Below are positions 26,899 to 29,988 of a stretch of DNA of 64,000 nucleotides, piece after piece. The notes under the pieces are model-generated. The model saw only the letters and a list, made by a program, of their open reading frames with translations. It had not been told where the DNA came from and ran no database searches. Every line of letters starts with the position of its first letter. The stretch's first letter is position 1. The stretch comes from Giardia intestinalis (Eukaryota). The position numbers and the translations under genes were made by a program. The stretch lies in the NCBI GenBank assembly GCA_000002435.2, contig CM018792.1; one strand, written 5' to 3'.

Positions 26899-29800
26899 AT
26901 GTTGGTAGGATTTCTCCTAGTTTGTGCAACAGTGCTGGCCAAGTACAGCGGGAAGACCAGCAGCGAGGCGGTTGCCAACACAAACTGCGCACAAGAGCTG
27001 CAGAATGCGGGCTGCAAGACGTGCGGCCCCAACGACCAGACGTGCCTGGACTGCAAGACTCCTGGCGAGAACGTGCAGCTCGATAAAAGAAGCTGCGGCC
27101 CCACCTGCCCGCAGAACTCCTCCCCCAACCAAAACGTCTGCGAGTGCAACCCGGGATTCAACCTGAACGATAGAAAAGACGCGTGCGAGGCGGTTGCCAA
27201 CACAAACTGCGCACAAGAGCTGCAGAATGCGGGCTGCAAGACGTGCGGCCCCAACGACCAGACGTGCCTGGACTGCAAGACTCCTGGCGAGAACGTGCAG
27301 CTCGATAAAAGAAGCTGCGGCCCCACCTGCCCGCAGAACTCCTCCCCCAACCAAAACGTCTGCGAGTGCAACCCGGGATTCAACCTGAACGATAGAAAAG
27401 ACGCGTGCGAGGCGGTTGCCAACACAAACTGCGCACAAGAGCTGCAGAATGCGGGCTGCAAGACGTGCGGCCCCAACGACCAGACGTGCCTGGACTGCAA
27501 GACTCCTGGCGAGAACGTGCAGCTCGATAAAAGAAGCTGCGGCCCCACCTGCCCGCAGAACTCCTCCCCCAACCAAAACGTCTGCGAGTGCAACCCGGGA
27601 TTCAACCTGAACGATAGAAAAGACGCGTGCGAGGCGGTTGCCAACACAAACTGCGCACAAGAGCTGCAGAATGCGGGCTGCAAGACGTGCGGCCCCAACG
27701 ACCAGACGTGCCTGGACTGCAAGACTCCTGGCGAGAACGTGCAGCTCGATAAAAGAAGCTGCGGCCCCACCTGCCCGCAGAACTCCTCCCCCAACCAAAA
27801 CGTCTGCGAGTGCAACCCGGGATTCAACCTGAACGATAGAAAAGACGCGTGCGAGGCGGTTGCCAACACAAACTGCGCACAAGAGCTGCAGAATGCGGGC
27901 TGCAAGACGTGCGGCCCCAACGACCAGACGTGCCTGGACTGCAAGACTCCTGGCGAGAACGTGCAGCTCGATAAAAGAAGCTGCGGCCCCACCTGCCCGC
28001 AGAACTCCTCCCCCAACCAAAACGTCTGCGAGTGCAACCCGGGATTCAACCTGAACGATAGAAAAGACGCGTGCGAGGCGGTTGCCAACACAAACTGCGC
28101 ACAAGAGCTGCAGAATGCGGGCTGCAAGACGTGCGGCCCCAACGACCAGACGTGCCTGGACTGCAAGACTCCTGGCGAGAACGTGCAGCTCGATAAAAGA
28201 AGCTGCGGCCCCACCTGCCCGCAGAACTCCTCCCCCAACCAAAACGTCTGCGAGTGCAACCCGGGATTCAACCTGAACGATAGAAAAGACGCGTGCGAGG
28301 CGGTTGCCAACACAAACTGCGCACAAGAGCTGCAGAATGCGGGCTGCAAGACGTGCGGCCCCAACGACCAGACGTGCCTGGACTGCAAGACTCCTGGCGA
28401 GAACGTGCAGCTCGATAAAAGAAGCTGCGGCCCCACCTGCCCGCAGAACTCCTCCCCCAACCAAAACGTCTGCGAGTGCAACCCGGGATTCAACCTGAAC
28501 GATAGAAAAGACGCGTGCGAGGCGGTTGCCAACACAAACTGCGCACAAGAGCTGCAGAATGCGGGCTGCAAGACGTGCGGCCCCAACGACCAGACGTGCC
28601 TGGACTGCAAGACTCCTGGCGAGAACGTGCAGCTCGATAAAAGAAGCTGCGGCCCCACCTGCCCGCAGAACTCCTCCCCCAACCAAAACGTCTGCGAGTG
28701 CAACCCGGGATTCAACCTGAACGATAGAAAAGACGCGTGCGAGGCGGTTGCCAACACAAACTGCGCACAAGAGCTGCAGAATGCGGGCTGCAAGACGTGC
28801 GGCCCCAACGACCAGACGTGCCTGGACTGCAAGACTCCTGGCGAGAACGTGCAGCTCGATAAAAGAAGCTGCGGCCCCACCTGCCCGCAGAACTCCTCCC
28901 CCAACCAAAACGTCTGCGAGTGCAACCCGGGATTCAACCTGAACGATAGAAAAGACGCGTGCGAGGCGGTTGCCAACACAAACTGCGCACAAGAGCTGCA
29001 GAATGCGGGCTGCAAGACGTGCGGCCCCAACGACCAGACGTGCCTGGACTGCAAGACTCCTGGCGAGAACGTGCAGCTCGATAAAAGAAGCTGCGGCCCC
29101 ACCTGCCCGCAGAACTCCTCCCCCAACCAAAACGTCTGCGAGTGCAACCCGGGATTCAACCTGAACGATAGAAAAGACGCGTGCGAGGCGGTTGCCAACA
29201 CAAACTGCGCACAAGAGCTGCAGAATGCGGGCTGCAAGACGTGCGGCCCCAACGACCAGACGTGCCTGGACTGCAAGACTCCTGGCGAGAACGTGCAGCT
29301 CGATAAAAGAAGCTGCGGCCCCACCTGCCCGCAGAACTCCTCCCCCAACCAAAACGTCTGCGAGTGCAACCCGGGATTCAACCTGAACGATAGAAAAGAC
29401 GCGTGCGAGGCGGTTGCCAACACAAACTGCGCACAAGAGCTGCAGAATGCGGGCTGCAAGACGTGCGGCCCCAACGACCAGACGTGCCTGGACTGCAAGA
29501 CTCCTGGCGAGAACGTGCAGCTCGATAAAAGAAGCTGCGGCCCCACCTGCCCGCAGAACTCCTCCCCCAACCAAAACGTCTGCGAGTGCAACCCGGGATT
29601 CAACCTGAACGATAGAAAAGACGCGTGCGAGGCGGTTGCCAACACAAACTGCGCACAAGAGCTGCAGAATGCGGGCTGCAAGACGTGCGGCCCCAACGAC
29701 CAGACGTGCCTGGACTGCAAGACTCCTGGCGAGAACGTGCAGCTCGATAAAAGAAGCTGCGGCCCCACCTGCCCGCAGAACTCCTCCCCCAACCAAAACG

Positions 29801-29988
29801 TCTGCGAGTGCAACCCGGGATTCAACCTGAACGATAGAAAAGACGCGTGCGAGGCGGTTGCCAACACAAACAAGAGTAGTGGCCTTTCTACCGGCGCCAT
29901 TGCAGGCATTGCTGTGGCTGCTGTTATTGTCGTCGGGGGCCTCGTCGGCTTCCTCTGCTGGTGGTTCCTCTGCCGGGGCAAAGCGTAG
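26899..29988 (+). CDS. Variant-specific surface protein (VSP) with 13 identical 74-aa cysteine-rich tandem repeats, TM helix and the invariant CRGKA cytoplasmic tail
   Basis: Track ORF begins at GTG 26668. The real ATG is at 26899 ([14 protein letters not shown] signal peptide). Body is rich in CxxC/CxxxC motifs. C-terminus is ...[16 protein letters not shown]. VSP polyA motif follows the stop. Confidence 0.92.
   Translation: [1029 protein letters not shown]
26965..29877 (+). repeat. Tandem array of 13 complete copies of a 222-bp unit, plus a 27-bp start of a 14th, inside the VSP gene
   Basis: Period 222 bp (unit starts 26965, 27187, 27409 ... 29629). Copies appear nucleotide-identical. Each encodes [74 protein letters not shown] (10 Cys). 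Confidence 0.95.

Follow-up and report, generated by a model that had tools for sequence, protein, structure and literature searches.

A complete VSP gene of Giardia intestinalis in which thirteen identical 222-bp units run directly into the membrane anchor

A stretch of 64,000 nucleotides of Giardia intestinalis DNA (NCBI GenBank assembly GCA_000002435.2, contig CM018792.1), called the window below, carries a variant-specific surface protein (VSP) gene at 26899-29988. This open reading frame has been annotated before, its class is well described, and it is not new. It is read here, with considerable confidence, as the complete gene GL50803_0050165, a repeats-only VSP whose tandem array would have been built by in-frame exchange between repeat units and whose non-repeat region would have been deleted. 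The unusual feature of the gene is that the array joins the transmembrane anchor directly, and vspC5 is a published precedent for this arrangement (Adam et al. 2010, PMC2996952).

The coding sequence runs on the plus strand from the ATG at 26899 to the TAG at 29986-29988 and encodes 1029 amino acids in 3090 nt, with 133 cysteines (12.9% of the residues) and 26 CXXC motifs. In the protein search, XP_037901961.1 / KAE8303776.1 matched the whole protein at 100% identity over 100% of the length; this record is annotated as "VSP" from Giardia intestinalis WB clone C6, on a contig of 2,761,001 bp. The gene identifier, GL50803_0050165 on NC_051859.1 (chromosome 4), was obtained from Tables S1 and S2 of a 2022 survey (bioRxiv 10.1101/2022.03.07.483299), where the entry gives the same 3090 nt, 1029 aa, 133 cysteines and 26 CXXC motifs, together with an initiator element (Inr), a signal peptide, a transmembrane domain (TMD) and the CRGKA tail. 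There the gene is already catalogued as a tandem-repeat VSP, with its motifs recorded 13 times. The Pfam model PF03302 (VSP) matched residues 600-1029 with 39.4 bits against a cut-off of 31.4 (E = 4.5e-10).

The gene had first been called a VSP from its sequence alone, and this was borne out by the CRGKA tail, a recognized VSP criterion (PMC2996952, PMC7000408), the adjacent TMD, the signal peptide, the Inr, the polyadenylation signal, the high content of cysteine and CXXC motifs, the Pfam match above the cut-off and the complete identity to an annotated WB protein. The GGCY motif, which is frequent in VSPs although not universal, is the one hallmark that the protein lacks. CRGK occurs only once in the six frames of the window, so a single VSP is present there.

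The array was located by Tandem Repeats Finder as a single block at 26963-29871 with a period of 222, 13.1 copies, 100% matches, 0% indels and a score of 5818. Direct comparison of 13 consecutive 222-bp units gave 0 mismatches in each, and the perfect periodicity covered exactly 26963-29871, that is 2909 bp, made up of 13 × 222 bp (2886 bp) and a 23-bp partial 14th unit. Since the 222-bp blocks adjoining the array differ from the unit at 153-168 of 222 positions, compared with none inside it, the periodicity is not due to chance. The 13 nucleotide-identical copies over 2886 bp described by the sequence-only reading were thus reproduced. Divergence between copies, which would argue against recent homogenisation, was looked for, and 0 differences were found among the 13.

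The unit is in frame (222 = 3 × 74), and the 74-aa, 10-cysteine module proposed earlier, with its CKTC, CLDC, CGPTC and CEC motifs, could be read completely in the translation. Each module contains 10 cysteines, two CXXC, one CXXXC, one CXC and one NSS sequon. The first unit of the array begins 64 nt past the ATG, and with its in-frame 222-bp repeats in 13.1 copies the gene belongs to the tandem-repeat subclass of VSPs, for which a layout with repeats beginning 66-99 bp after the ATG has been described (PMC2996952).

At the other end, the array stops at 29871 and the conserved pre-anchor and TMD sequence begins at 29872. This is the layout of vspC5 (vsp90; PMC2996952), in which the repeats follow a short 5' segment and reach the conserved 3' end, leaving little but repeats in the exposed part. 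More than 20 copies and allelic copy-number variation have been reported for vspC5; its unit of 105 bp (35 aa) is a different module from the 222-bp (74-aa) unit of the window, and the two genes are likened here by the published description. After the array, the window protein has 36 aa, versus 310-366 aa in six relatives with a homologous repeated module. In addition, no GGCY was found in its 1029 aa, compared with one in each of these six relatives. A stretch is likewise missing relative to L001, a single-module VSP on a metagenome scaffold (ENA ERZ28638705 scaffold_14310): nothing in the window corresponds to its positions 1117-1946. GGCY is present in 117 of the 136 VSPs of the 2022 survey, so 19 accepted VSPs do without it.

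The junction reads AACACAAAC followed by AAGAGT, which is translated as NTN followed by KSS, and other VSPs read STN followed by KS(S) at this place. The likeness of the NTN and STN codons over 7-9 nt suggests a deletion of about 1 kb there. In the proposed sequence of events, this deletion would be separate from the building of the array, and recombination at the 7-9-nt homology would have removed the non-repeat ectodomain including GGCY, leaving a repeats-only VSP like vspC5.

For comparison, six further VSPs carrying a homologous module as an array were taken from the protein-search matches, which together with the window array makes seven. They are GL50803_0050169 (XP_037901976.1) on chromosome 4 (unit of 74 aa, 16.35 copies), GL50803_0050066 on chromosome 5 (75 aa, 11.9 copies), the GenBank clone of CRP65 (76 aa, 4.2 copies), the WB CRP65 gene GL50803_0038901 (76 aa, 21.2 copies), VSP P0005 (75 aa, 10.2 copies) and AS7 (75 aa, 5.1 copies). 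Within each related array the internal units are identical at the amino acid level and only the edge units differ, and this includes CRP65 and AS7, which were cloned and sequenced by the Sanger method well before the time of long-read assemblies. Between arrays, the module identity to the window is 81, 58, 59, 40 and 39%, i.e., 19-61% amino acid difference, with 10 of 10 cysteines invariant. As identical units are found in all seven arrays, perfect identity is the norm of the family, and the suggestion that it marks out the window array as something special did not hold.

The closest relative is GL50803_0050169. It shares with the window gene the location on chromosome 4, the 74-aa (222-bp) period, 81% module identity with the 10 cysteines conserved, a near-identical signal peptide, the Inr TAATGTT, an identical 20-nt polyadenylation motif and the identity of the units, whereas it differs in copy number (16.35 versus 13.15), in a diverged terminal module and in a 366-aa non-repeat region with GGCY. 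The nucleotide comparison covers its first 399 nt, taken from a supplementary table, over which the two genes are 87.2% identical. The window unit and the homogenised unit of GL50803_0050169 differ at 24 nt, about 4.3 of them synonymous and 19.7 non-synonymous (dS 0.098, dN 0.122). With a dS of about 0.10 to the closest paralogous unit and not a single difference within the array, the data support a recent amplification, or a homogenisation, through unequal exchange in frame, and the earlier proposal of a recent expansion or ongoing homogenisation was a reasonable one. The scaffold of cysteines is conserved, and at the other positions of the module no sign of purifying selection is seen.

CRP65 (L39804 / AAB06228.1; GL50803_38901, vsp27) is more distant. 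Its first 15 residues are identical to those of the window protein, which therefore has a 5' end of the CRP65/CRP136 type, and its homologous 76-aa (228-bp) module has 59% identity, the same 10 cysteines and identical units. It differs in the 228-bp period, the location on chromosome 1 and a 310-aa non-repeat region with GGCY. The 5' nucleotides are also common to the window gene, GL50803_0050169 and GL50803_00137605, the last of which has a different, shorter repeat unit.

Uniform arrays that diverge from one another point, as judged from these alignments, to concerted evolution or to amplifications that were recent and independent. In the latter case, there would have been a single recent burst without ongoing homogenisation, after which too little time has passed for mutations. 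WB allelic heterozygosity is only about 0.01%, so that even an array that was not homogenised should show fewer than one difference over 2.9 kb, and sequence alone does not separate a burst from continuous turnover. However, each of the seven arrays is uniform while being 19-61% apart, so many independent and equally recent bursts would be needed. Moreover, the copy number of the CRP65 unit (GL50803_38901) is 4 in the 2007 assembly, 4.2 in the GenBank clone and 21.2 in the 2020 assembly, and alleles of vspA6 and vspC5 carry different numbers of repeats (PMC2996952), which implies ongoing gain and loss. The seven uniform arrays and the CRP65 counts thus favour continued gain and loss of units, and a single burst is considered rather unlikely.

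A possible origin of the period is seen in L001, where the single module lies at 846-1094 and the 5' flank is 82% identical to that of the window gene. An exact 17-nt direct repeat, CGGGAAGACCGCGTGCG (GKTAC codons), occurs there twice, 228 bp apart, and brackets exactly one module. These repeats may represent the substrate from which a module was first duplicated, or what was left when an array collapsed to a single copy; in both cases, the 222-228-bp period could plausibly have arisen by exchange between such short CGGGAAGACCGCGTGCG repeats. The residues KYSGKTSS, which precede the array in the window gene, correspond to the unit end LNDRKDAC in diverged form. Metagenome scans with a 23-nt core of the unit and with the last module plus anchor gave no match.

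The whole course may then have been as follows. First, a module present once and flanked by short direct repeats (GKTAC codons) would have been duplicated. Once duplicated, the array would have been amplified by in-frame unequal homologous exchange or by replication slippage between 222-bp units, and the same exchange or slippage, or gene conversion, would keep the copies identical and alter their number.

The protein is predicted to be a type I membrane protein formed, in this order, by a 14-aa signal peptide, an ectodomain made up essentially of the 13 identical modules, the TMD helix and the 5-aa CRGKA tail. If it were the sole VSP expressed by a trophozoite, it would be expected, by analogy with other VSPs, to form a protease-resistant coat on the cell and to present one set of epitopes 13 times, and a switch to another VSP would take it out of antibody recognition. 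The repeated module matched EGF-like and TNFR-like cysteine-rich Pfam models, and its second half is EGF-like. Metal binding by CXXC motifs has been reported for a purified VSP and predicted for all VSPs, and a link between the CXXC motifs of the window module and metal, as proposed earlier, would agree with this literature.

Several points weigh against the reading as a complete repeats-only VSP shaped by in-frame exchange and deletion. GL50803_0050165 is absent from the peptide list of the 2022 survey (Table S13), in which 99 of the 136 VSPs are present, and a literature search for the gene identifier in two spellings gave no mention of it. Earlier work linked GGCY mutation to lost surface localisation, although, as said above, 19 of 136 VSPs lack the motif. 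An AlphaFold2 prediction of two modules from a six-row alignment reached a mean pLDDT of only 55.2 and a pTM of 0.34, and only the second halves of the modules came near a pLDDT of 70; VSP ectodomain predictions were likewise poorly ordered in the 2022 survey. A sequence search of the PDB gave marginal matches to EGF domains only (factor IX, E = 0.09). With about 24 differences behind it, the dN/dS ratio of about 1.2 between the window unit and that of GL50803_0050169 cannot be told apart from 1. L001 derives from a different sample, and a collapsed array would explain it equally well. Finally, the proposed genetic events (unequal exchange, slippage, conversion and deletion) are in each case read from patterns in the sequence.

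Some of these points would fit a different explanation, namely that the gene is a non-functional by-product of recombination, a truncated VSP that is never displayed and serves at most as a recombination reservoir. The lack of GGCY, the 36 aa left after the array and the absence from the peptide list speak for it, and many vsp genes have been suggested to be unexpressed reservoirs (PMC2996952). Against this, the Inr, the signal peptide, the open frame of 3090 nt, the TMD, the CRGKA tail and the extended polyadenylation signal are all intact, and accepted VSPs without GGCY exist. In addition, the protein yields few tryptic peptides, which are partly common to GL50803_0050169, making proteomic detection less likely. 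A non-functional by-product is accordingly regarded as doubtful, and the complete repeats-only VSP is preferred.

The number of copies has to be read with the assembly in mind. The window matches the long-read, optical-map-guided WB assembly, which was obtained from PacBio reads and an optical map with Quiver and Illumina polishing, and in which a split-read check found no misassemblies (PMC7000408). An array of 2.9 kb is normally spanned by single reads, so the copy count is argued to be reliable from the assembly method and the modest array length. As a control within the window, a 42-bp array at 49103-49681 shows 97% matches and Pro/Leu variation between copies; since these differences are retained, the assembly does not force repeats to be identical. 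On the other hand, it has been warned that repeat numbers may be condensed by assembly (PMC2996952), and the earlier concern that the count may be collapsed is legitimate for the repeat-VSP class, given the 4 versus 21.2 copies of CRP65. Allelic variation in the copy number of the window array is possible, as documented for vspA6 and vspC5 (PMC2996952). Giardia has a tetraploid genome, and structural variants are overrepresented at VSPs in WB.

An unplaced WB scaffold, NW_024037086.1, contains open reading frame fragments (GL50803_0050443 and GL50803_0050444) annotated as "High cysteine protein". These are copies of the window 222-bp unit that differ from it only by one substitution and by 1-bp indels, 6 over about 800 nt, which break it up. 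In all likelihood the window array is represented here a second time, by a redundant contig that was left unpolished or by an allele, and was mis-annotated as separate genes; the scaffold has the look of long reads that were left over because they did not map to the chromosome, and an allele of different length might lie behind it. Even with this scaffold, the condensed-repeat warning, the shift in the CRP65 counts and the tetraploid genome in its favour, an assembly or polishing artefact, in which the 13 perfect copies would be a consensus and the real number or identity of the units would differ, is very unlikely in view of the read length and the split-read check, the identical units in the independently Sanger-cloned CRP65 and AS7, and the 42-bp array, in which polishing did not homogenise the copies by default.

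Repeat-bearing VSPs are well known in this organism. In WB, 30 vsp genes have tandem repeats of 105-516 bp in 2 to more than 20 copies (Adam et al. 2010, PMC2996952), and the 2022 survey found tandem repeats in 36 of 136 VSPs. A text search of the literature for a 222-bp VSP period matched no paper, and the period surfaced in a supplementary table: among the chromosome-4 genes, vsp13 (eight copies) and vsp15 (three copies) have 222-nt repeats, and repeats of 225 nt (AS7) and 228 nt (CRP65, vsp3) are also tabulated (PMC2996952 Additional file 1). The suggestion that 222 bp is unusual among VSP periods therefore had to be abandoned, the more so as GL50803_0050169 shares the 74-aa period. The prototype of repeat VSPs, VSPA6 / CRP170 (vsp67; PMC2996952), has 99 bp of 5' sequence followed by about 22-23 tandem repeats, which are immunodominant and vary in number between alleles and related genes. 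Unlike the window gene, it has a unit of 195 bp and about 1.3 kb of non-repeat sequence after the repeats, and here too the likeness is taken from the published description.

The gene vsp13 resembles the window gene in its 222-nt repeat, its location on chromosome 4 and its Inr TAATGTT (PMC2996952 Additional file 1). Its 93 cysteines and 18 CXXC motifs equal nine window-type modules (10 cysteines and two CXXC each) plus 3 cysteines, i.e., a repeats-only composition. It differs in having 8 repeats and 725 aa and in that vsp14 begins 38 bp downstream (PMC2996952), whereas the window has no second VSP 3' end. The equation of vsp13 of the 2007 assembly with the window gene was considered, since the cysteine and CXXC counts fit, and was dropped because the published downstream vsp14 does not match the window, although vsp13 might be a collapsed or mis-assembled form of the window gene. 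In the 2007 assembly, the chromosome-4 "linear array", headed by vsp13, consists of vsp13 (222-nt repeat, eight copies, 725 aa), vsp14 (74 aa) and vsp15 (222-nt repeat, three copies, 300 aa), with modules totalling about 13. This layout disagrees with the long-read window and may therefore be a mis-assembly of a 222-bp array.

The features of the gene and its flanks are collected in Table 1. The Inr, PyAatgTT, was defined in PMC2996952 and is found in many, though not all, vsp genes, and the CACTTAGGTAGTAAACGTAT motif is tabulated for both GL50803_0050165 and GL50803_0050169 (Table S6 of the 2022 survey). Other reading frames over the gene were rejected. A GTG-started frame of 1106 aa from 26668 is a stop-free read-through, as the Inr, the signal peptide and the annotation put the start at 26899. 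On the minus strand, the antisense frames 26814-29981 (1055 aa) and 26917-29796 (959 aa) are by-products of the stop-free 222-bp unit and are not supported as genes.

Table 1. Features of the VSP gene and its flanks, in window coordinates.
Feature	Position	Strand	Basis
Conserved VSP 5' flank, non-coding	26622..26898	+	With first module, 82% identity to L001 5' flank
Initiator element TAATGTT (PyAatgTT) spanning the start codon	26897..26903	+	Sequence; same Inr in bioRxiv 10.1101/2022.03.07.483299 Table S1
Complete VSP coding sequence	26899..29988	+	Translation; identity to XP_037901961.1; Pfam PF03302
Signal peptide, 14 aa, hydrophobic	26899..26940	+	Read from sequence; same in bioRxiv 10.1101/2022.03.07.483299 Table S1
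Pre-array segment KYSGKTS.	26941..26962	+	Diverged counterpart of unit end LNDRKDAC (edge comparison)
Tandem array, 13 identical 222-bp units + 23 bp	26963..29871	+	Tandem Repeats Finder and direct comparison
Array-anchor junction AACACAAAC	29863..29871	+	Module NTN codons coincide with usual pre-anchor STN codons
Pre-membrane segment KSSGLSTG	29872..29895	+	Same KSSGLSTG in VSP AS7
Conserved VSP transmembrane domain, 25 aa	29896..29970	+	bioRxiv 10.1101/2022.03.07.483299 Table S1; published consensus TMD
Invariant cytoplasmic tail CRGKA, then stop 29986-29988	29971..29985	+	Translation
Extended VSP polyadenylation signal CACTTAGGTAGTAAACGTAT, AGTAAA at 30009-30014	30000..30019	+	Sequence; 11 nt past the stop

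In the window, the VSP gene sits among ordinary genes, including a COPI alpha subunit, ankyrin-repeat proteins and papain-family proteases. A GC-rich island at 24000-30000 (59-65% GC, versus 43-49% elsewhere in the window) spans the VSP gene and the open reading frame 24092-26005. The latter, on the minus strand, encodes 637 aa with a signal peptide, a Peptidase_C1 core (E = 2e-30) with long insertions and a C-terminal hydrophobic segment. Together with the papain-family protease gene at 37405-39030 on the plus strand, it flanks the VSP region within 13 kb; of the two proteases, one carries a cathepsin C exclusion domain, and the other is the long divergent form. The 42-bp tandem repeat at 49103-49681 (13.8 copies) encodes the 14-aa unit LGILP(P/L)QGIDAPQS. 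It lies inside the minus-strand open reading frame 47447-59080 (3876 aa), which has no Pfam match, and its copies are non-identical, unlike those of the VSP array.

For the family, these results mean that identical units are the rule in this VSP subfamily and should not be flagged as an anomaly, and that repeat counts depend on the assembly, as seen in the sister gene that went from 4 to 21 copies between Sanger and long-read data. It is improbable that the window VSP is naturally minimal yet expressed and displayed, with an array length that varies among the four genome copies or between subclones. Should such a minimal VSP be displayed, the semi-conserved C-terminal ectodomain would be dispensable for coat formation, and should the array length vary, the number of modules would be a second, fast-changing axis of antigen variation. 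The GGCY-less gene could serve as a natural test of which parts of a VSP are needed for surface display.

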